From a virus (taxonomy: Duplodnaviria > Heunggongvirae > Uroviricota > Caudoviricetes), in IMG/VR virus record IMGVR_UViG_2563366799_000005: a DNA stretch of 9,993 nt. One strand, given 5' to 3'. A program made the position numbers and the translations under genes. Below the pieces are notes generated by a model. It saw nothing but the letters and a program-made list of their open reading frames with translations, did no database searches and was not told the DNA's origin. Of the stretch, positions 1 through 9,059 are shown piece after piece. The stretch's first letter is position 1. Every line of letters starts with the position of its first letter.

Positions 1-1053
1 TTACGGGGTAATGCCAACCGCTGCCGCCACTTTGTCGCCACTTGGCAGCGTTGCCAGAGGATTGAAACGGAGCGCCGTTTCCAGATGATCCGGTGCCAGA
101 TGAGCGTAACGCATAGTCATTTTTATATCGTGATGTCCGAGGATTTTTTGCAAAGCAAGGATATTTCCACCCGACATCATGAAATGCGCCGCAAACGTAT
201 GGCGCAGAACGTGTGTCAGTTGACCGCGAGGGAGCACGATTGACGTTTTTTCCATCACGGATAAAAATTGAAAATAGCAGTCTGTGAAGAAATTGAACCC
301 ATCAAGCGCCATGATCTCTTCATAAAGCTCTTTACTGATAGGGATGCTTCTGTTTTTCTTCCCCTTCGTTCTTACAAAGGTAATTCGGTATTTAGTCACC
401 TGTGATCGGGTAAGGTTTATTGCTTCTCGCCAGCGTGCGCCTGTGCTTAAGCATATCTTGACTACCAGTGCCAGAATTGGGTCCTGACGTTTGCAATCAG
501 CCAGCAGTTCAACAATCTGCTCATGGGTAAGCCATGCCATCTCTTTTTCTGCGATGGTGAATTTTCGCATGTTCTCCAGTGGGTTTGGATACGACCATTC
601 GCCCAGGCGGGATAGTTCGCTAAAAACACTACTTAGATAGCTTTGCTCCAGGTTAATGGTGACCGGGCTTGCTCCTTTCTTCCATTTCTCGCTGAAGTAG
701 ATCTCACCTGTCAGGCGTTTATCTCGATAGTGGGCAAACATTTTAGAGGTGAGATCGGTTGCAAGGGGATTGCCCAGAGCGTCAACCATCAACAGCAATT
801 TATCATAGACATGCTGCCCAGCGGTTAGAGATTTACCATGTAGTTTGAACCATAGCTCAACCACGTCTTTCAGTGTTCGACGATCCACTGATTCTCCCAG
901 CCAGGGCTTTGCTTCGGTTTCTTCCATCGTATGGCGCTCAAAAGCCAGAGCTTCGCCTTTGGTGGCGAATTGTTTACGCACACGACGCCCACTACGTCCG
1001 GCGGGGTAACATTCGCAAAGCCATTTTCCTGTGGTGAGTTTTCGTACTGCCAT
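1..1053 (-). CDS. int: Tyrosine integrase, P2/186 family (350 aa from ATG at 1053; stop at 1-3)
   Basis: N-terminus MAVRKLTTGKW...GRRVRKQFATKGEALAFE resembles P2 Int. Catalytic signature present: TGARWREA, HVLRHTFA, GHHDIKMTMRYAHL (R...H-x-x-R...Y). GGAGGG RBS 8 nt upstream of ATG 1053. The longer ORF to 1131 has no better start. Confidence 0.9.
   Translation of the reverse strand: MAVRKLTTGKWLCECYPAGRSGRRVRKQFATKGEALAFERHTMEETEAKPWLGESVDRRTLKDVVELWFKLHGKSLTAGQHVYDKLLLMVDALGNPLATDLTSKMFAHYRDKRLTGEIYFSEKWKKGASPVTINLEQSYLSSVFSELSRLGEWSYPNPLENMRKFTIAEKEMAWLTHEQIVELLADCKRQDPILALVVKICLSTGARWREAINLTRSQVTKYRITFVRTKGKKNRSIPISKELYEEIMALDGFNFFTDCYFQFLSVMEKTSIVLPRGQLTHVLRHTFAAHFMMSGGNILALQKILGHHDIKMTMRYAHLAPDHLETALRFNPLATLPSGDKVAAAVGITP
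19..40. repeat. Candidate attL core (left copy of the 22-bp direct repeat), inside the 3' end of int
   Basis: cgctgccgccactttgtcgcca at 19-40 matches 7139-7160 at 21/22 positions (single mismatch at position 30 vs 7150). Identity is lost immediately outside on both sides. Confidence 0.6.
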
Positions 1054-1239
1054 AAAAAATGCCCTCCAATAGAGAGCATTTTTACTGTATATATAACCAG
1101 TGTCAATGTATGAAATCCTGCGACCATACATCTCACTGAAGCCATAATGAAGTTGGCTATTTTTTGCTATGTGAGTATGTGACTTTTGCGGTTAGCCTGC
1201 GGCTCATTGTTATATTAGGCGCAGATATAAAAGCAAAAT

Positions 1240-1431
1240 TTATCGCGAGTTTTTAGTACAGATTTTTTTTGATTTACTAATAGTTCCATCATTGCAAACG
1301 AACTTTCCATCGGAGGTACAGTGAGAGACACCTCCCTTTTTCCCAGAACAAGGATAATTTTTAGCATAGGTAGTTAGTGGGTTTAATAACAAAGAGCATG
1401 ATAAAACCACAAAAAATACCTTACCAAGCAT
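1240..1431 (-). CDS. Hypothetical small secreted cysteine-rich, lysine-rich peptide (63 aa precursor); moron between cI and int
   Basis: Strong SD (GGGAGG) 5 nt upstream of the ATG and only 4 nt after the cI stop. N-terminus looks like a Sec signal peptide (MLGK + [12 protein letters not shown] + NPLTTYA, likely cleavage after TYA). Predicted mature part about 39 aa with 4 Cys, 8 Lys, net charge about +7. Locally very AT-rich. No family recognised. Confidence 0.5.
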
Positions 1432-1446
1432 AGTTTCCTCCCGGTA

Positions 1447-2016
1447 TTACCTAACGTACTTAATTGTTAAACTTATAATTTTCCCAATTATTTCAACATC
1501 TTCTATCTTGCACTCGAAGGCTCTGTTTCCACCTTCAACGAAGATTCTTCCACCGGGTAAACGAGTAATGTCGCGGATTGTTATTTCGCCATCAATACTT
1601 ATTACCCATTTACCGTCACGTATATCATCAAATTCTTTATCACAAATAAATTCAGAATTGTTATCTGTGATGACAAAAGGTTTTTTAAACGTAGAGGGTA
1701 GAAATCCCTTATCAAAAATATAAAAACCGTCTTCACGCAAGGCACCATCAGATAATACATATTTAGCAACTTCCATAGTATTTGTATTACCTGAAGTTTG
1801 CTTTGAACCATGTCCGGTTGTGAGCCAATTAAGCGAGGTGCCCGTTTCAAGGGCGCACTGGATTACCCATTCTGCTGGGAATGAGTCACGCATGTAGCGT
1901 GTGGCGAGTGTACTTTTAGAGATTCCTAAATGATCGCACAACGCCTGTCGAGTTTTGAATCCATAAGCTTCTACCATGCGCTCTATAGCGCCTCGTCCGC
2001 CTTTCTCCAAATTCAT
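1447..2016 (-). CDS. cI: Phage 186 CI-type immunity repressor (189 aa from ATG at 2016; GTG at 2022 is an alternative)
   Basis: N-terminal HTH (TRQALCDHLGISKSTLATRYMRDS) plus a C-terminal domain. Size of about 190 aa matches 186 CI, not the roughly 99-aa P2 C. Divergent from apl/cII across a short switch region. GGAG RBS 6 nt before the ATG. Confidence 0.85.
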   Translation of the reverse strand: MNLEKGGRGAIERMVEAYGFKTRQALCDHLGISKSTLATRYMRDSFPAEWVIQCALETGTSLNWLTTGHGSKQTSGNTNTMEVAKYVLSDGALREDGFYIFDKGFLPSTFKKPFVITDNNSEFICDKEFDDIRDGKWVISIDGEITIRDITRLPGGRIFVEGGNRAFECKIEDVEIIGKIISLTIKYVR

Positions 2017-2022
2017 GGTCAC

Positions 2023-2141
2023 TCCAAGTGAACTTTTATCTTGACGATTTCACTGTACGATCGTATGTTTATGGTGTTCACAAAATACAAACGATCCGTA
2101 TTCGTCCTGATTAATCATCATTAAACGAGGAATGTTGCATC
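2023..2141. promoter_or_regulatory. Lysis/lysogeny switch region between cI and apl, with candidate rightward lytic promoter and palindromic operator
   Basis: Candidate sigma70 promoter on + strand: TTGACG (2041-2046), 17-bp spacer, TATGTT (2064-2069). Perfect 10-bp palindrome TACGATCGTA (2056-2065) overlaps the spacer and -10. Related repeat ACGATCCGTAT at 2091-2101. Inverted hexamers GTGAAC (2028-2033) and GTTCAC (2075-2080). The leftward lysogenic promoter could not be placed confidently. Confidence 0.5.
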
Positions 2142-2363
2142 ATGAGACCTAACATTTCAATCACTCTTACCACGCCTCATGTGACTATTGAACGCTATAG
2201 CGAGCTGACAGGGCTGTCCATCGATACCATCAATGACATGTTGGCTGACGGACGCCTTATCCGTCACCGTCTGCGCAAAGATAAAAAACGTGAAAAAGTG
2301 ATGATCAACATAGCAGCCATGACCGTTGATGCGCTTTCAGAATGCAATCTAAACCTTAATTAG
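2142..2363 (+). CDS. apl: Apl/Cox-like small HTH protein (excisionase / switch regulator), 73 aa
   Basis: First gene of the rightward early operon, directly downstream of the switch. HTH-like segment [26 protein letters not shown]. Assignment rests on position and size as for 186 apl / P2 cox. GAGG RBS upstream. Confidence 0.6.
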
Positions 2364-2395
2364 TTCGATTCTGAAATACATCAGAGGCATTGACC

Positions 2396-2905
2396 ATGTT
2401 TGATTACCAAGTTTCCAAACATCCACATTTTGATGAAGCCTGTCGTGCATTCGCATTGCGCCACAACCTAGTGCAACTGGCAGAACGTGCAGGCATGAAT
2501 GTGCAGATTCTGCGGAACAAGCTGAACCCAGCTCAACCTCATTTATTAACCGCACCAGAAATCTGGTTGCTTACCGATCTGACTGAAGATTCAACGCTGG
2601 TAGATGGCTTTCTGGCACAGATTCACTGCCTGCCATGTGTACCGATTAATGAGGTGGCAAAAGAGAAACTGCCGCATTACGTCATGAGTGCAACTGCAGA
2701 GATAGGGCGTGTCGCGGCAGGTGCGGTTTCTGGCGATGTAAAAACCAGTGCAGGCCGTCGTGATGCGATCAGCAGCATTAACTCTGTTACACGACTGATG
2801 GCGCTGGCTGCTGTTTCATTGCAGGCCCGTTTACAGGCTAATCCTGCGATGGCGAGTGCAGTTGATACCGTGACTGGCCTCGGTGCTTCATTCGGTTTGC
2901 TGTGA
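2396..2905 (+). CDS. cII: Phage 186 CII-type regulatory protein (169 aa from ATG 2396; ORF track starts at TTG 2390)
   Basis: Position immediately after apl. Length of 169 aa equals the size I remember for 186 CII. HTH-like segment [27 protein letters not shown] 8 nt before ATG 2396. Confidence 0.8.
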
Positions 2906-2912
2906 GGTGCTT

Positions 2913-3113
2913 ATGCTGACGAAAGAACCATCATTTGCATCGCTGCTAGTAAAACAAAGTCCGGCAATGCACTACGGTCACGGCTGGATCATGGGTGAGG
3001 ATGGTAAACGCTGGCATCCGTGCCGTTCACAAGATGAATTGCTGGCAGAACTATCTACGAAAAAACGGGGTAACAAATGGCTATTGAAGGCGCTGCGGCG
3101 ACTGTTCCATTAA
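2913..3113 (+). CDS. Hypothetical early protein (66 aa), in the position of 186 fil
   Basis: ATG at 2913 with GAGGTG RBS, starting 8 nt after the cII stop. ORF track gives an upstream GTG at 2883 that would overlap cII. No recognisable motif; the 186 fil analogy is by synteny only. Confidence 0.45.
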   Translation: MLTKEPSFASLLVKQSPAMHYGHGWIMGEDGKRWHPCRSQDELLAELSTKKRGNKWLLKALRRLFH

Positions 3114-3418
3114 GACCCGGTGAACGCCTGAATGGACTTAATCATATTGCGGAGTTAAGGGCGAAAGTTTTTGGTTTGAATATTGAGTCAGAGCTTGAGC
3201 GGTTTATTAAAGATATGCGTGATCCTCGGGATATCAATAATGAACAAAATAAACGGGCACTGGCTGCCATATTCTTTATGGCAAAAATTCCAGCTGAACG
3301 TCATAGCATCAGCATTAATGAGCTGACCACTGACGAAAAGCGGGAGTTGATTAAAGCAATGAATCATTTTCGTGCAGTGGTGAGCTTATTTCCCAGACGG
3401 CTAACCATGCCGAATTAA
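3077..3418 (+). CDS. Hypothetical early protein (113 aa), in the position of 186 dhr
   Basis: ATG at 3077 with GGGG RBS; overlaps the preceding ORF by 37 nt in another frame. No recognisable motif; the dhr analogy is by synteny only. Confidence 0.45.
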   Translation: MAIEGAAATVPLRPGERLNGLNHIAELRAKVFGLNIESELERFIKDMRDPRDINNEQNKRALAAIFFMAKIPAERHSISINELTTDEKRELIKAMNHFRAVVSLFPRRLTMPN

Positions 3419-3485
3419 CCAACTAATGAAATTAATGGCGTAAACCCGCCGGGCATCCCTTTATCTAAATTCAGGAGAATTGCTT

Positions 3486-3719
3486 ATGCGTAATATTGAA
3501 ACCCTCACGACCAAAACCGGACCGGATGATGCAGGTCTTAATCTTTTACTGACAGAGGCTCGTCTGGAAGAACGCCGGGCAAGGGCTGAAGCAATGGCTG
3601 CTCGCCTCGATAGCCTGGCGTGTCATATCACCTCCCGCCAGCTAAACCACGTCGAAGCGGCAGAACTGCTGCGTGTGACTGCTGAAGCAATCCAGAACGA
3701 AGCGCAGGAGATCCACTGA
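3486..3719 (+). CDS. Hypothetical early protein (77 aa), predicted helical; last gene before the rearrangement junction
   Basis: ATG 3486 with AGGAG RBS 9 nt upstream (ORF track starts at TTG 3480). Stop at 3717-3719 lies about 25 bp from where capsid homology begins on the opposite strand, so the 3' end may be junction-derived. Confidence 0.4.
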   Translation: MRNIETLTTKTGPDDAGLNLLLTEARLEERRARAEAMAARLDSLACHITSRQLNHVEAAELLRVTAEAIQNEAQEIH

Positions 3720-3741
3720 TGGCTGATGCAATGGATCTCGT

Positions 3742-4098
3742 ACACAGGTCCAGCTTCGCGTAGGTCAGCACCGTGTCAAAGTTGGTCTGCTCACATTTAT
3801 ATTCCACATCGACCATCAGCGTCGGATCGACAGGCTCACGCTCTTTTGCGGTGGTATCAGTGGTTCCGGCAATGGTGCTGCCAACACCCAGCCCCAGCAA
3901 CTGACCGGACTGCTCAGTCACTGGCGTGACGTTAATCAGCGTCAGGAATGCGGCGGATTGCTGGATCTGGTCTTCCAGCGTCTGCTGCACAGACGGCTCC
4001 ACGGTGAACTTGCTGGACAGTTCTTCAACTGCCACACCGTTCAGACGCGCCAGCTGCTGCAGGTAAGCGTTAAAAGCAAAGCGGGTATTCTTCTTCAT
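3742..4098 (-). pseudogene. 5' fragment of P2-family major capsid protein gene (gpN-like, first about 119 codons), inverted relative to expected orientation
   Basis: Translation MKKNTRFAFNAYL...LNG...KFTVEPSVQQTL...FLTLINVTPV...GSTIAGTTDTT...EYKCEQTNFD...YAKLDL follows the N-terminus of P2 gpN as I recall it (MRQETRFKFNAYL...KFTVEPSVTQTL...GSIASTTDT...YECDQINFD...YKTLDL). Similarity stops near nt 3742; the ORF then runs on as antisense of the upstream gene to 3628. GGAG RBS upstream of ATG 4098. Confidence 0.75.
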
Positions 4099-4199
4099 CG
4101 GGTTTTGTGCTCCATCAGCAATTGGTCAGAGTGTCAGCGGGGGCGTTACCGCCTGTTGCACGCTGGCGGTAGTCCTGGCGGCTGTCTTCATGACTCAGC

Positions 4200-6689
4200 T
4201 TGTCCACCAGTTCGTTAAAGGCGGTTTACTGCTGGGCACGCGCCATGCTCAACGAACGATACCAGGACTATGACGCCACGGCATCCGGTGTGAAGCGAGG
4301 CGAGGAACTGGCAGAAGCCAGCGGTGATTTGTGGCGTGACGCCCGCTGGGCCATCAGCCGGGTACAGGAACTTCAGCAGACCTATAACGGCTTGTTGGGG
4401 GCGGTCCAGAGACAACGTCAGGCACTTAAAGAATCAGGGATTGATACCAGACAACTCAGTAGTGCCCAGCGAGAACTTAAGAAAAATGCCGAAGAAACTC
4501 GTCAGGCACTGGAGGGCCAGCAAAAAGCACTTAAACGTCTGGGTGAACAACAGGCACGGATGAACGCTGCCAGAGAACAATACTCAAGACGGCTTGAAGT
4601 GCGCGATCGCATCGCAGGAGCCGGAGCCACCACCACGGCTGCAGGGCTGGCAATGGGCGCGCCAGTGATGGCGGCGGTAAAAAGCTATACCAGCATGGAA
4701 GATGCCATGAAAGGTGTGGCAAAGCAGGTCAATGGTCTGCGTGACGATAATGGCAACCGCACTGCGCGTTTTTACGAAATGCAGGATGCCATCAAAGCTG
4801 CCAGTGAACAGCTGCCAATGGAAAACGGTGCTGTGGACTTCGCCGCACTGGTTGAAGGTGGTGCGCGCATGAATGTGGCAAACCCTGACGACAGCTGGGA
4901 GGACCAGAAACGTGACCTGCTGGCCTTCGCCAGTACGGCAGCAAAGGCGGCAACAGCCTTTGAGCTGCCAGCGGATGAACTGTCAGAAAGTCTGGGGAAA
5001 ATCGCCCAGCTCTACAAAATACCAACCCGCAATATTGAACAGCTCGGTGATGCGCTGAACTATCTGGATGATAACGCTATGTCGAAAGGGGCAGACATCA
5101 TTGATGTCATGCAACGCCTGGGCGGTGTGGCTGATCGTCTGGATTATCGTAAAGCGGCGGCGCTGGGTTCCACCTTCCTGACACTGGGTGCTGCGCCGGA
5201 GGTCGCTGCCAGTGCTGCCAACGCGATGGTGCGTGAATTGTCCATTGCGACCATGCAAAGCAAGAGTTTCTTTGAAGGAATGAATCTGCTGAAACTCAAT
5301 CCTGAAGTGATTGAAAAGCAGATGACGAAGGATGCGATGGGAACTATCCAGCGCGTACTGGAGAAGGTGAATGCACTGCCGCAGGATAAGCGCCTGTCTG
5401 CCATGACCATGTTGTTTGGTAAAGAGTTTGGCGATGATGCGGCGAAACTGGCAAACAACCTGCCGGAACTGCAGCGCCAGCTAAAACTGACAGCGGGCAA
5501 TGATGCGCTCGGTTCGATGCAGAAAGAATCCGACATTAACAAGGACTCACTTTCTGCGCAGTGGTTGCTGGTCAAAACCGGAGCGCAGAACACCTTCAGC
5601 AGCCTGGGCGAAACGCTGCGCCAGCCGCTGATGGATATTCTGTACACGGTGAAAAGCATCACGGGGGCGTTGCGTTGCTGGGTGGAAGCTAACCCTGAAC
5701 TGACGGGCACACTGATGAAAGTAGCAGCGGTTGTGGCTGCTGTTACTGTGGGCCTCGGCACCCTGGCTGTGGTGTTGGCTGCTGTGCTGGGGCCGCTGGC
5801 AGTCATCCGTCTGGGATTCTCTGTGCTGGGTATCAAAACGTTACCTTCCGTTACGGCAGCAGTAACGCGAACCAGCAGCGCGTTGTCCTGGTTGGCTGGC
5901 GCACCACTTGCACTGCTGCGACGCGGGCTTGCTTCATCGGGCAACGCCGCAGGTTTACTTACTGCGCCGTTGTCGTCTTTGCGCCGCACGGCATCACTGA
6001 CGGGAAATGTCCTGAAAACTGTAGCAGGTGCGCCGGTTGCACTTTTGCGGTCTGGATTATCCGGTTTACGTGCTGTTGCTGTGATGTTTATGAATCCTCT
6101 GGCGGTACTGCGCGGTGGACTGGCCTCCGCAGGCACGGTGCTGCGAATACTGGCATCTGGTCCACTGGCGATGCTGCGCGTTGCCCTGTATGCCGTATCT
6201 GGTCTGTTAGGTGCTCTGCTCAGTCCGATAGGTCTTGTGGTTACTGCACTGGCGGGCGTGGCGCTGGTTGTCTGGAAATACTGGCAACCCATCACCGCAT
6301 TTCTTGGTGGCGTGGTGGAAGGATTCAAAGCGGCGGCAGGTCCCGTCAGTGCAGCATTCGAACCGCTTAAGCCAGTGTTCCAGTGGATTGGCGACAAAGT
6401 ACAGGCGCTGTGGGGCTGGTTTACTGATCTGCTGACGCCCGTTAAGTCGACCTCTGCCGAACTGCAGAGCGCAGCGGCAATGGGGCGACGATTCGGGGAG
6501 GCACTGGCGGAAGGGCTGAATATGGTCATGCATCCGCTGGACTCCCTGAAATCCGGCGTTTCCTGGTTGCTGGAGAAACTCGGCATTGTCAGTAAAGAGG
6601 CTGCAAAGGCGAAACTGCCGGAAAGAGTGACGCGTCAGCAAACCGTCGTCCGTCCACGCAGTTTCTGGGACCGGACAACGACATGCTGA
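4200..6689 (+). CDS. Phage tail tape measure protein (gpT-like); 829 aa from TTG 4200 or 814 aa from ATG 4245; both ends abut junctions
   Basis: Long alpha-helical, Gln/Ala/Leu-rich N-terminal half, hydrophobic Gly/Ala/Leu segment, and six degenerate repeats with 22-aa period (GAPLALLRRGL, TAPLSSLRRTA, GAPVALLRSGL, NPLAVLRGGL, SGPLAMLRVAL; nt about 5784-6186). In-frame stop at 4191-4193 leaves no room for more N-terminus and no good SD precedes either start. The last about 30 codons overlap the D-fragment frame. Confidence 0.85.
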   Translation: MSTSSLKAVYCWARAMLNERYQDYDATASGVKRGEELAEASGDLWRDARWAISRVQELQQTYNGLLGAVQRQRQALKESGIDTRQLSSAQRELKKNAEETRQALEGQQKALKRLGEQQARMNAAREQYSRRLEVRDRIAGAGATTTAAGLAMGAPVMAAVKSYTSMEDAMKGVAKQVNGLRDDNGNRTARFYEMQDAIKAASEQLPMENGAVDFAALVEGGARMNVANPDDSWEDQKRDLLAFASTAAKAATAFELPADELSESLGKIAQLYKIPTRNIEQLGDALNYLDDNAMSKGADIIDVMQRLGGVADRLDYRKAAALGSTFLTLGAAPEVAASAANAMVRELSIATMQSKSFFEGMNLLKLNPEVIEKQMTKDAMGTIQRVLEKVNALPQDKRLSAMTMLFGKEFGDDAAKLANNLPELQRQLKLTAGNDALGSMQKESDINKDSLSAQWLLVKTGAQNTFSSLGETLRQPLMDILYTVKSITGALRCWVEANPELTGTLMKVAAVVAAVTVGLGTLAVVLAAVLGPLAVIRLGFSVLGIKTLPSVTAAVTRTSSALSWLAGAPLALLRRGLASSGNAAGLLTAPLSSLRRTASLTGNVLKTVAGAPVALLRSGLSGLRAVAVMFMNPLAVLRGGLASAGTVLRILASGPLAMLRVALYAVSGLLGALLSPIGLVVTALAGVALVVWKYWQPITAFLGGVVEGFKAAAGPVSAAFEPLKPVFQWIGDKVQALWGWFTDLLTPVKSTSAELQSAAAMGRRFGEALAEGLNMVMHPLDSLKSGVSWLLEKLGIVSKEAAKAKLPERVTRQQTVVRPRSFWDRTTTC

Positions 6690-6829
6690 CGCTTTCCGGT
6701 GTTCTTATGCCGGAGATAGATGATGCGGAATGGACCATTACGACTCTGACACATACCGTCAGCTCGGATAACGGTTTTACGACCAGTCTGGAGCTTGAAG
6801 TGAGGATTGATGATTTCGAAATGGAATGA
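6596..6829 (+). pseudogene. Probable 3' remnant of tail gene D (or the U/D block), fused out of frame to the tape-measure 3' end
   Basis: Short ORF ending MLTLSGVLMPEIDDAEWTITTLTHTVSSDNGFTTSLELEVRIDDFEME, located exactly where D ends in P2/186 (immediately upstream of ogr). The assignment is mainly positional; I cannot recall the D C-terminus reliably. Confidence 0.4.
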
Positions 6830-6919
6830 TTCTTCGCAATGGAGAACTTTTAAGTTTGCAAAATGGAATAATGCGGTATCATTATTGTGAATTTAGCAAA
6901 AATGGGGAGAACTCGAAAA

Positions 6920-7138
6920 ATGATGATTTGCCCACTGTGTGGAAGTGCCGCCCATACTCGCAGCAGTTTTCAGGTATCTTCATTGACCAAAGAGCGTTAC
7001 AACCAGTGCCAGAATATTAACTGCAGCCATACTTTTGTAACCCATGAAACTTTTGTTCGTTCGATTGCAACGCCAAAAGAGTCAAATCCGGTTCAGCCGC
7101 ATCCAATGAAATCAGGACAGGTGGCGCTCTCTCTTTGA
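6920..7138 (+). CDS. ogr: Ogr/Delta-family zinc-finger late transcription activator (72 aa)
   Basis: MMICPLCGSAAHTRSS...KERYNQCQNINCSHTF...VQPHP follows P2 Ogr as I recall it (MFHCPLCQHAAHARTS...KERYHQCQNVNCSATF...VRPHP), with the CxxC...CxxxxC zinc motif. Length of 72 aa equals P2 Ogr. GGGGAGA RBS about 9 nt before ATG 6920. Stop is immediately followed by the right repeat copy. Confidence 0.9.
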   Translation: MMICPLCGSAAHTRSSFQVSSLTKERYNQCQNINCSHTFVTHETFVRSIATPKESNPVQPHPMKSGQVALSL

Positions 7139-7160
7139 CGCTGCCGCCATTTTGTCGCCA
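7139..7160. repeat. Candidate attR core (right copy of the 22-bp direct repeat)
   Basis: cgctgccgccattttgtcgcca, 21/22 identical to 19-40, starting at the first base after the ogr stop codon. Confidence 0.6.
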
Positions 7161-7218
7161 TCGTTAAAAAACAGTGCTTCTAACGTCATGATTTTAAACG
7201 GCATAAATTTCAGGCAAC

Positions 7219-7261
7219 AAAAAACCCATCAACCTTGAACCGAAATGGCGGGGTTGATGGG
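7219..7261 (-). terminator. Rho-independent terminator-like hairpin downstream of ybjL
   Basis: On the minus strand: 10-bp stem CCCATCAACC / GGTTGATGGG (7225-7234 with 7252-7261), 17-nt loop, followed by TTTTTT (complement of 7219-7224). No U-tract on the + strand side. Confidence 0.5.
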
Positions 7262-7373
7262 CTCCACAAAATGGGGACATCAAAGAAAAGCAGTGGCACT
7301 AATTAAGACTGATGCCCTGCGGAAAAGTTCTGCGGTTGTGCAAAAAAATTTCATTTTCAGGGCAACTTCAGTT

Positions 7374-9059
7374 TTATCCTAATCCTGGCCATACCATGAC
7401 GATGATTGTCCCTGCCAGCGTCAGCAGGACGTTGGCGATTGCGTAGGTGCCCGCATAGCCCAGCGCAGGGATGTTACTGCGAGCTGTATCACTGATGATC
7501 TCCATTGCCGGCGCGCAGGTGCGTGCGCCCATCATTGCGCCGAACAACAGTGCGCGGTTCATTCGCAATACATAAGCACCGAACAAGAAACAGATAACCA
7601 CGGGCACAAGACTGACAATTAATCCGGCAATCAACATCTGACCGCCAATCGCGCCCAGGCCGTTATTAATACCGCTACCGGCGCTCAGACCAACGCCTGC
7701 CATAAACACCATCAAGCCGAACTCTTTCACCATGCTTAATGCACCTTGCGGAATGTAACCGAAGGTCGGGTGGTTAGCACGCATAAAGCCCAGCATAATT
7801 CCGGCGAATAACAACCCGGCAGCGTTCCCCATGCCGAAACTGAATGTGCTGAACTGGAAGGTGATCATCCCGATCATCAGCCCAATAACAAAGAAGGCGC
7901 AAAATGCCAGCAGGTCAGTGACCTGGCTGTGAATCGAGATAAAGCCGATGCGATCGGCGATGGTTTTTACGCGACGGGCATCACCGCTGACTTGTAAAAC
8001 GTCACCTTTGTTAAGCACGACGTTGTCATCTATCGGCATCTCAATCTGGCTACGAATGACGCGGTTAAGGAAGCAACCGTGATCGGTCAACTTCAGTTGT
8101 GCGAGACGTTTACCTACAGCGTTATGGTTTTTAACGACCACTTCTTCAGTGACGATACGCATGTCGAGAAGGTCACGATCGAAAACTTCTTTACCGTTAC
8201 GGAAGCTGGGATCGAGTCGGGCATGGGCGTCGGGATAGCCTACCAACGCTATTTCATCGCCCATTTGTAGCACGGCATCACCGTCTGGATTTGCCAGAAT
8301 CCCGTTACGTCGAATACGTTCAATGTAGCAGCCGGTTTGTCGATAAATACCCAGTTCACGCAGATTTTTGCCGTCGGTCCAGGCCACCAGCTCCGGGCCG
8401 ACGCGATAGGCGCGGATCACCGGTAAATAAACCTTACGGTTGGCATCAGTGTCCAGGCCACGTTCGCGGGCGATTTGCTGGGCGCTGGTCTGTAAGTCCT
8501 GATGCTGCAATTTCGGCAAGTAACGCGCACCAACAATCAAACTCACCAGACCGATTAAATAGGTTAAGGCATACCCGAGGCTCAGATTATCCAGTGCCAG
8601 TGAGAGCTGCCTGCTTTCCATGCCGGAATGACGCAGTGTATCGCCAGCACCGACCAGAACCGGTGTCGACGTCATAGAGCCTGCTAACATACCGGCCGTC
8701 AGGCCAATATCCCAGCCAAACAGCTTACCTAACCCTAAGGCGATCACCAGCGCACTGCCAACCATCACCAGTGCTAACATTAGGTAATTTTTCCCATCGC
8801 GAAAAAAAATGGAAAAAAAGTTCGGTCCGGCTTCGACCCCGACGCAGAAAATAAACAGCATAAAGCCAAGATTAAGCGCATCGGTGTTAATGCTGAAATG
8901 TTGTTGGCCTAATAACAGCGATACGACTAAAACGCCAATGGAATTACCCAGTTGGATCGAACCAAGTCGTAACTTTCCGAGACATAGCCCAAGCGCGAGG
9001 ACCACAAATAATAACAGAATGTAATTCCCATTTAACAATTCGGCGACGTTTATATTCAC
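7374..9059 (-). CDS. ybjL: Putative transport protein YbjL (AAE-family membrane transporter with central RCK/TrkA-C-like region), 561 aa
   Basis: Translation [29 protein letters not shown]... matches E. coli YbjL as I remember it, full length. Hydrophobic N- and C-terminal membrane domains flank a soluble middle. GTG start at 9059. Confidence 0.93.

Follow-up and report, generated by a model that had tools for sequence, protein, structure and literature searches.

Prophages of the PhiECO1 group (PhiECO1 of E. coli HS, PhiECO2, PhiECO3 and PhiSEN1 of S. Typhi) are P2-like prophages described by Nilsson et al. (2011; PMC3448106), with an attB between the genes rcdA and ybjL. PhiECO1 itself (HS positions 916812-948276) lies in this intergenic region and both starts and ends on the first A of AACAAAAAACCCAT, a 14-bp segment which the group shares with the element reported here. 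A cI-cox spacer of 125 nt was reported for the immunity group of PhiECO1, PhiECO2 and PhiSEN1, and WPhi is listed with phages for which the site of integration in E. coli was already identified, but not under the PhiECO1 group (PMC3448106). The HS prophage was reported to be SOS-inducible (as 'P2 prophage' in the Phollow study), and prophage NC-MV of strain NC101 is likewise reported between ybjL and rcdA.

Phages 186 (Eganvirus ev186) and P2 allow further comparison. 186 has in common with our element the gene order ogr(B)-attP-int-cI-apl-cII-fil, tandem 11-bp repeats of the CGCCA type on both arms (the P' pair of 186 lying about 95 bp from the core) and the N-terminal W/E/Y signature of Int. 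However, 186 integrates at the 3' end of a tRNA-Ile gene (ileY) using a common core of 36 bp, its Int is 56% identical, and its P arm contains a third, inverted unit and a pair located further from the core. The attP of P2 is arranged as ogr, P arm, IHF site, 27-bp core, Cox site and P' arm, the last inside the 3' end of int, and each arm carries tandem direct repeat units, as is the case here. In contrast, the arm consensus of P2 is TGTGGACA and not CGCCA-type, its repressor is C-type as opposed to CI-type, attB and core are others, and its Int is 35% identical.

Cryptic remnants of E. coli K-12, such as CP4-57, e14 and rac, are riddled with deletions, having kept integrase, excisionase and repressor and lost the virion genes. 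The same combination is found in our element.

The window analyzed here is a stretch of 9,993 nucleotides (IMG/VR record IMGVR_UViG_2563366799_000005). Positions 1-7229 of the window, together with some 100 bp beyond its left end, are very probably what is left of a P2-like (Peduoviridae) prophage, a cryptic element of 186 type that belongs to the PhiECO1 group; in it, a 22-bp direct repeat would provide arm sites of the integrase. The element is an ordinary, already known type of prophage at a known E. coli attachment site.

Gene content and decay

The remnant measures about 7.3 kb, compared to about 31.5 kb for an intact phage. Its terminal genes are arranged as attL-int-cI-cox/apl-cII-fil ... 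D-ogr-attR (Table 1), colinear with the relatives in HS, KP12 and 813R9. Gene order, Pfam domains and colinearity bear out the first-pass annotation, which had recognized the remnant of a P2/186-like prophage, terminated by int and ogr, and an intact immunity module. The integration module is intact too: int, cI, cox/apl and cII are complete reading frames, and fil, DUF5347, DUF2732 and ogr are intact as well. Compared to the PhiECO1 group, Int shows 98% identity, Cox, Fil and Ogr have the same protein accessions (that of Ogr is shared with the intact prophages of HS and KO11FL), and arm repeats, length of the cI-cox spacer and the YdcA-like ORF are common to both. Our element lacks an insertion of 350 bp located between int and its P' arm site.

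Table 1. Features of the prophage remnant and its right flank (window coordinates).
Feature	Position	Strand	Remarks
int, tyrosine integrase, 350 aa, 186-type	1..1053	-	apparently intact; Pfam Int_N + Phage_integrase
left 22-bp copy, putative P' arm pair	19..40 (units 22-32 TGCCGCCACTT, 33-43 TGTCGCCACTT)	+	inside 3' end of int; 92 bp from core in KP12 attP
accessory ORF, 63 aa, YdcA-like	1240..1431	-	phrog_6000; in the variable position separating int from cI
cI, immunity repressor, 186 type, 189 aa	1447..2016	-	Pfam Phage_CI_repr + Phage_CI_C, nearly whole profile each; both domains complete
cI-cox/apl switch region, 125 nt	2017..2141	.	early and lysogenic promoters predicted in divergent orientation, like pR/pL of 186
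cox/apl, Cox-like excisionase and repressor, 73 aa	2142..2363	+	phrog_575, E = 6e-31
cII, lysogeny-establishment activator	2396..2905	+	Pfam Phage_CP76, E = 3e-42
remaining early genes	2913..3719	+	fil 2913-3113, DUF5347 3077-3418, DUF2732/orf80 3486-3719
inverted N/O fragment	3743..4231	-	capsid gene N, initial 364 nt (CDS part 3745-4098); scaffold gene O, final ~117 nt (4115-4222)
head-completion gene L, internal 155-nt fragment	4215..4369	+	L006 6284-6438
tape-measure gene T, fragment	4359..6641	+	about nt 310-2592 of 3078; chimeric L'-T' ORF; Pfam PhageMin_Tail
tail gene U, 79-nt island	6640..6718	+	between two deletions not found in strain G3/10
tail gene D, last 115 nt	6715..6829	+
ogr, late-gene activator, 72 aa, intact	6920..7138	+	Pfam Ogr_Delta
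right 22-bp copy, putative P arm pair	7139..7160 (units 7142-7152 TGCCGCCATTT, 7153-7163 TGTCGCCATCG)	+	42 bp from core, as in KP12 attP
rest of phage P arm	7161..7202	.	in KP12 attP and attR of HS, KO11FL and G3/10; absent from K-12
attR core ATAAATTTCAGGCAACAAAAAACCCAT	7203..7229	+	true right end of prophage; BOB'/BOP'/POB'/POP' comparison
host B' side, ybjL intrinsic terminator hairpin	7230..7266	-	RNA fold -23.3 kcal/mol, z = -3.0

Int differs from that of phage KP12 by a single residue. Residues R207, H281, R284, H307 and Y316, which we take to be the expected catalytic residues of a tyrosine recombinase, fall in invariant alignment columns. At its N-terminus, Int has W11/E14/Y16 as in 186, whereas P2 has Y/D/R; together with the Int_N domain, these residues suggest a cognate Int with an arm-binding domain of the 186 type. 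Such N-terminal W/E/Y positions have been proposed as possible discriminators of arm-site types (PMC3448106). A reading of int through attL into host DNA was rejected, as int terminates within the P' arm, in phage DNA, and has an identical stop codon in KP12, where the sequence is contiguous.

In KP12 and 813R9, the slot between int and cI is occupied by a gene for a 558-aa ATPase instead of the YdcA-like ORF. Promoters in the switch region are predicted from the annotation of 186. The Cox/Apl protein shows weak N-terminal similarity to Apl of 186; a Pfam search returned no match for the 73-aa or the 63-aa ORF, and it was PHROGs that named the former a Cox-like excisionase.

Colinearity with intact relatives stops at 3744-3747. 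Mapping of breakpoints against these relatives, which had been proposed as a check, located one inversion and several deletions. The N/O fragment, inverted with respect to the PhiECO1 group, aligns to intact prophages in reverse orientation in blastn (L006 4560-4064, L007 16187-15699); it matches phrog_70 (major head protein) and carries RefSeq pseudogene calls in G3/10. Homology of the T fragment to the T gene of phage Cartapus begins 309 nt into T, and the fragment ends at L006 22050. Microhomologies of AA and GATA are present at the junctions of the U island.

The earlier statement on the loss of replication and lysis genes and of most structural genes holds, and cos and packaging genes are gone too: the element lacks A, Q, P and M, the region in which cos lies and the genes for lysis, baseplate, sheath and tube, as well as the tum/DinI region of the PhiECO1 group. 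In the decay that followed integration, a single inversion and several deletions associated with short microhomologies would have removed the replication genes (a TraR/DksA-like gene, dam and A), the region in which the intact HS prophage has DinI-like and tum genes, the A-to-Q region (which has cos in P2-like phages) with the packaging genes Q, P and M, the lysis genes and nearly all head and tail genes. Because all that persists of the late genes other than ogr are pieces of N, O, L, T, U and D, the element is a remnant and not a functional member of the Peduoviridae. Presumably, it can no longer produce virions or respond to SOS induction. It may nevertheless have kept CI immunity against homoimmune phages and may still be excisable; CI, Int and Cox may have some activity left.

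Distribution of the remnant

The exact window sequence has no match among 5426 complete genomes, and the T'/U'/D' junctions occur in none of them. Strain G3/10 is the only one of these genomes sharing the orf80/N'/O'/L'/T' junctions, and it lacks the two additional deletions. Searching with a 48-aa junction ORF, we found the exact architecture of the window in other, independent assemblies with the same left flank.

Since int, cox/apl, cI, cII and ogr are intact reading frames and both att sites have been kept together with their putative arm sites, the remnant could be imagined not as inert debris but as a maintained, still-mobile mini-element which might excise and reintegrate, and which might also influence superinfecting P2-like phages or P4-like satellites through CI immunity or trans-activation by Ogr. 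If true, this would explain its nearly identical presence in many gut assemblies. However, such copies can be explained by clonal descent alone, and we consider a maintained mini-element unlikely.

Integration site and ends of the element

The first-pass annotation had considered host genome and attB to be undeterminable from the window. Both can now be named: the element is inserted in E. coli between rcdA and ybjL, on the terminator of the latter, and the nearest complete genome is that of strain G3/10. The empty site, as in K-12 and other strains, contains one copy of a 27-bp core, ATAAgTTTTAGATAACAAAAAACCCAT, which is different from the 22-bp repeat. Attachment cores match imperfectly over these 27 bp and include the 14-bp identity segment AACAAAAAACCCAT (7216-7229 in the window). 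When BOB', BOP', POB' and POP' sequences are tabulated, host-type and phage-type bases switch exactly at this segment, which places the crossover within it. AACAAAAAACCCAT is duplicated at attL and attR; attR is in the window, while attL was found in G3/10 and in four further loci with the window architecture (L010-L013). attL lies outside the window, 75-101 bp to the left of position 1. In the curing design for the HS prophage, attB was recreated from a point '77 bp downstream of ogr' (Phollow study), which agrees with our attR, as do the coordinates published for PhiECO1 in HS.

A contiguous empty site was found in 4227 of the 5426 complete E. coli genomes, and in about 4300 genomes the match to the window does not begin before 7203. 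The junction of ogr, P arm and core is present in 1103 of the 5426, and the rcdA/ybjL attachment site is occupied in about 20% of complete E. coli genomes. E. coli W/KO11FL also carries a prophage at this site, for which WPhi was considered as a candidate.

The terminator hairpin of ybjL (Table 1) also exists in the empty site of K-12, with its U-tract encoded by the att core and the U-tract end by the 14-bp segment AACAAAAAACCCAT. A simple terminator scan of 6800-7400 gave no match, because the loop of the hairpin exceeds the limit of the scanner. On the attL/attP side, a weaker hairpin (-9 kcal/mol, z = -1.1 to -1.8) is merely suggestive of a terminator of the int operon.

The 22-bp direct repeat

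The repeat itself is genuine. Its left copy, CGCTGCCGCCACTTTGTCGCCA (19-40), and right copy, CGCTGCCGCCATTTTGTCGCCA (7139-7160), are both on the plus strand and identical at 21 of 22 positions. Allowing up to three mismatches, no further copy was detected in the window, and 200 dinucleotide-preserving shuffles of the window gave zero repeat matches. Both copies had been placed precisely at the outer edges of int and ogr. For the right copy, which is non-coding and begins with the base directly following the ogr stop codon, this is correct, but the left copy lies inside the int frame (minus-strand CDS 1-1053, stop at 1-3) and codes for residues near the C-terminal tail.

Each copy consists of two tandem 11-bp units, TGCCGCCAYTT and TGTCGCCAYnn. 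The published arm-site consensus for 186-type Int is tgccGCCActt (PMC3448106), and TGCCGCCACTT and TGTCGCCACTT fit it. Compared to YAYCGCCAYTY of the 186 record, the units agree at 10 of 11 positions, with G for A at position 2. Agreement with YRYCGCCAYTY is complete for three of the four units, whereas TGTCGCCATCG, the second unit of the P arm, has two mismatches at its 3' end, in its last two positions. In the record of Klebsiella phage KP12, where ogr and int are contiguous, the order is ogr, 22-mer, 42 bp, core, 92 bp and a 22-mer in the 3' end of int. Both 22-mers are therefore present in attP, 161 bp apart on the P and P' arms, with a different 27-bp core between them; they are absent from attB. 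The distances from arm to core are 90/93 bp here versus 90/87 bp for the Int-binding sites in the P2 record. Tandem CGCCA-type pairs also occur on both arms of 186 and Fels-2, though the cores differ, and in both arms of the ogr-int region of PsP3.

Consensus, position and analogy with P2 together make it highly probable, as part of the explanation as a whole, that each 22-mer is a tandem pair of arm-type sites for Int. Scans of whole phage genomes for single units are noisy, with a few exact matches to the arm motif at other places, so that a unit on its own has no diagnostic value; only the paired, core-flanking arrangement is diagnostic. For this reason, only that arrangement was used as evidence. 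In the mechanism we propose, the phage would enter the rcdA/ybjL intergenic region by Int-mediated site-specific recombination, which would leave one pair in the P' arm of attL and the other in the P arm of attR. The N-terminal domain of a heterobivalent Int would recognize the 11-bp sites. In attP, there is one pair to either side of the core at a distance of about 90 bp, which would allow Int to bridge arm and core sites in an intasome, presumably assisted by DNA bending through IHF and Cox/Apl.

Binding sites of some other protein, from phage or host (Cox/Apl, CI or IHF), might look similar, as RDF sites are likewise direct repeats one helical turn apart (PMC7498355). However, the 186 attP has its Apl and IHF sites annotated between core and arm repeats and its CGCCA-type repeats assigned to Int (the record labels this binding as 'predicted'), the arm consensus is common to phages with differing Cox/Apl and CI proteins, and the spacing and layout are those of the arms annotated as Int-binding in the P2 record. 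This makes proteins other than Int very unlikely as the ligand.

That the repeat has no function, being due to chance or kept only since its left copy encodes the C-terminal tail of Int, appears extremely unlikely. The left copy is indeed coding in this element, but no such repeat is to be expected from chance, the right copy lies outside any coding sequence, and the paired arrangement recurs in 186, PsP3 and Fels-2. Furthermore, in strain HS an insertion parts the 22-mer from int, so that the left copy is non-coding and the Int tail different, but the distance from the 22-mer to the core has been preserved.

The original reading of the copies as the attL and attR cores of an element spanning exactly 19-7160 failed the refutation test proposed along with it and has virtually no chance of being correct: although the repeat is statistically real, direct, adjoining ogr and near the end of int, the single 22-mer expected at an empty site was found neither at the K-12 locus (L002), even with three mismatches allowed, nor in the 4227 genomes with an empty site, homology of empty sites to the window begins at 7203 instead of 7161, and KP12 holds both copies in attP. 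Contrary to the earlier statement, the element is also not bounded by the repeat, since phage DNA continues past both copies, to 7229 on the right and to about 100 bp beyond position 1 on the left. Limits based on the repeat are about 120 bp short on the left, where the junction is off the window, and 43-69 bp short on the right.

Implications

The remnant documents a further stage in the decay of prophages at a much-used attachment site of E. coli. It raises no new biological question. The value of the result is one of correction: a short direct repeat beside int and ogr is not automatically an att core. The arm sites of P2/186-like integrases form a direct repeat of about 22 bp around the real core, and prophage boundaries called from such a repeat are therefore too narrow.

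Location of the attachment site

The 22-bp direct repeat reported in the first-pass annotation is real: the two copies share a strand and are identical at 21 of 22 positions, they are the only matches in the window at up to three mismatches, and no match occurred in 200 dinucleotide-preserving shuffles. Their assignment to the outer edges of int and ogr holds for ogr, whose stop codon is directly followed by the right copy, but not for int, since the left copy lies inside the reading frame (CDS 1–1053, minus strand, stop codon at 1–3), 18 nt before the CDS end.

The interpretation of the copies as attL and attR was refuted by comparison with empty sites. A contiguous empty site was found in 4227 of 5426 complete E. 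coli genomes, and the ogr–P arm–core junction, i.e., P2-like occupancy of the rcdA/ybjL site, in 1103. In genomes without this junction, the match to the window starts only at 7203, and a search of the K-12 locus that tolerated up to three mismatches did not find the 22-mer. Because of this absence and the start of homology at 7203, the 22-mer lies away from the insertion boundary, which the first-pass annotation had itself named as incompatible with its reading.

Comparing the four types of site, host-type bases (T..AT) among the leftmost 13 bp of the core go with the host arm B and phage-type bases (C..GC or C..AC) with the phage arm P. Owing to this segregation, the crossover is placed by sequence comparison within the 14-bp identity segment AACAAAAAACCCAT (window 7216–7229). 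attL lies outside the window, 75–101 bp left of its first position; measured between equivalent core positions in a contig with the same architecture (L010), the element is 7303 bp long. PhiECO1 of E. coli HS is the corresponding intact prophage; its published coordinates (916812–948276; PMC3448106) both fall on the first A of AACAAAAAACCCAT. The HS prophage has been described as SOS-inducible, and a deletion “starting 77 bp downstream of ogr” has been used to cure it, recreating attB; this start agrees with window 7216 (ogr stop + 78). Remnants with other deletions occupy the same site, e.g., in strains MFDS1001074 and P276M, and for strain NC101 another paper reported prophage NC-MV between ybjL and rcdA.

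RNA folding of the ybjL strand at the site gave a hairpin with a 14-bp stem followed by UUUUUUGUU (−23.3 kcal/mol; z = −3.0 in the window, −4.1 in K-12), which is the intrinsic terminator of ybjL. Since the final bases of the stem and the U-tract both come from the identity segment, attR keeps this terminator. A shorter hairpin of the P′ arm itself precedes this U-tract (−9 kcal/mol, weak z) and plausibly terminates the int operon, in analogy to the terminator annotated near attP in 186.

Features of the remnant and its attachment sites (window positions unless a genome is named)
Feature	Location	Content
Left 22-mer	19–40	CGCTGCCGCCACTTTGTCGCCA
Right 22-mer	7139–7160	CGCTGCCGCCATTTTGTCGCCA
P′ arm units		TGCCGCCACTT + TGTCGCCACTT
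P arm units		TGCCGCCATTT + TGTCGCCATCG
Empty site (attB, BOB′)	K-12	rcdA-stop...tag ATAAGTTTTAGATAACAAAAAACCCAT caaccttgaacc...
attL (BOP′)	G3/10	...tag ATAAATTTTAGATAACAAAAAACCCAT ttatgtaaacgggtt...
attR (POB′)	7203–7229	...aaacggc ATAAATTTCAGGCAACAAAAAACCCAT caaccttgaacc...
attP (POP′)	phage KP12	...aaacggc ATAAATTTCAGACAACAAAAAACCCAT ttatgtaaacgggtt...
Colinear early region	1–3744	int, YdcA-like ORF, cI, 125-nt switch region, cox/apl, cII, fil, DUF5347, DUF2732
Inverted piece	3743–4231	N first 364 nt and O end
L	4215–4369	155 nt
T	4359–6641	about nt 310–2592 of 3078
U	6640–6718	79 nt
D	6715–6829	last 115 nt
ogr	6920–7138	intact

Predicted integrase arm-type sites

From sequence and by analogy with related phages, we strongly infer that the 22-mers are arm-type sites of the integrase. 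In Klebsiella phage KP12, the ogr stop codon is followed by a 22-mer, 42 bp, the 27-bp core, 92 bp and a second 22-mer inside the last int codons. Each copy consists of two tandem 11-bp units, which agree at 10/11 positions with YAYCGCCAYTY, the “predicted” Int arm-type sequence in the 186 GenBank record (three sites left of attP, two right); the consensus published for 186-type arm sites is tgccGCCActt (Nilsson et al., 2011; PMC3448106). A motif scan recovered the 186 pairs CACCGCCATTC-TATCGCCACTC and TACCGCCACTT-TATCGCCATTC as well as equivalent tandem pairs in both arms of PsP3 and Fels-2; the cores of 186 and Fels-2 differ (tRNA-Ile versus the attP halves given in the Fels-2 record). Int-binding arms are also annotated in the P2 record, where the P′ arm lies within the 3′ end of int as here, and the P and P′ arm-to-core distances are 90 and 87 bp, compared to 90 and 93 bp in the present element. 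Further, the N-terminus of Int carries W/E/Y as in 186 instead of Y/D/R as in P2, at positions proposed as possible discriminators of arm-site type (PMC3448106).

Mere coding constraint on the 22-mer is disfavored by E. coli HS, where the P′ copy and int are set apart by a 350-bp insertion containing a small ORF and the Int tail is altered, but the distance of the 22-mer from the core is unchanged. This insertion of about 350 bp (1445–1793 of the HS locus L007), with its 89-aa ORF straight after the P′ arm 22-mer, has the position of orf69 in phage 186. In the P′ arm adjoining the window on its left (5927–6000 of the G3/10 locus L001), AAAACAATAAGTTA occurs twice, 19 bp apart, together with GGTGGTCAGTGGTGGT; these sequences lie between the core and the arm-type pair and are candidate Cox/Apl or IHF sites.

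Gene content and decay

Mapping of the window against HS, KO11FL, phage Cartapus and G3/10 supported the description of the element as a prophage remnant and, together with full-length family matches of the intact ORFs, showed the gene content given in the first-pass annotation to be correct. Overlaps or microhomologies of 2–17 bp were found at the junctions. Lost are the TraR/DksA-like gene, dam and replication gene A, the region carrying the DinI-like and tum genes in HS, the moron region and the region where cos sits in P2-like phages, packaging genes Q, P and M, the lysis genes, and the baseplate, fiber, sheath and tube genes. A 21-nt inverted repeat (6632–6652/6672–6692, 81% complementary) spans the T′/U′ deletion junction at 6641; one part is native to gene U, the other was made by the deletion.

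Accordingly reduced, the remnant would be unable to replicate, lyse or package, and it lacks the region holding tum, the antirepressor gene behind SOS induction of the intact HS phage. Nevertheless, both att sites with the predicted arm sites, int with conserved expected active-site residues, and cox were kept, and all formal needs for CI immunity and Int/Cox-mediated excision would still be present. Upstream of ogr, there is a direct repeat (6807–6830/6849–6872) and a sigma-70-like site (6855–6882); the equivalent position in phage 186 holds the CI-repressed promoter pB. By this analogy, ogr may be under CI control here.

Source of the window and its relatives

The rightmost third of the window comes from the ybjL-ybjM-grxA region of E. 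coli. Strain G3/10 (NZ_CP060075) is 99.98% identical over the whole window except for two extra deletions in the latter (L001 positions 12642–13224 and 13304–14591), whose junctions occurred in 0 of 5426 complete genomes. However, the index of the assembly collection lists a 48-aa ORF across both junctions in 429 blocks, and four retrieved contigs (one NCBI genome, three metagenome assemblies) are colinear with the 9993-base window with 1–3 mismatches. Hence, the architecture is a real, circulating allele. In G3/10 and these contigs, the gene left of int is rcdA, with a 104-bp spacer from its stop codon to window position 1. Near-identical remnant copies in many assemblies are as clonal descent would give, and the comparisons made here yielded no sign that the host benefits from the element.

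Int (1–1053) differs from that of KP12 (L003 4638–5690) by one residue, and the attP arms and core of the E. coli remnant and KP12 are nearly identical, which implies that the integration module was recently shared between genera. The KP12 record (OM835953.1, “clone KP12_3, partial sequence”) has been placed in Vequintavirinae, but this clone is a P2-like genome containing ogr-attP-int; an induced prophage or a co-assembled contig is its probable origin. Content varies in the slot separating int from cI: the window (1240–1431, minus strand) and HS carry a 63-aa YdcA-like ORF (phrog_6000; PF27300 match recorded), and KP12 (L003 5774–7450) and 813R9 (L004 7136–8812) a 558-aa “chromosome segregation ATPase” gene. 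This slot could be an accessory or defense cargo locus.

The literature already covers the phage group, attB, the core and the consensus of the arm repeats, and a decayed prophage at rcdA/ybjL is an ordinary finding. The use of this case is as a warning against drawing prophage boundaries from short direct repeats.
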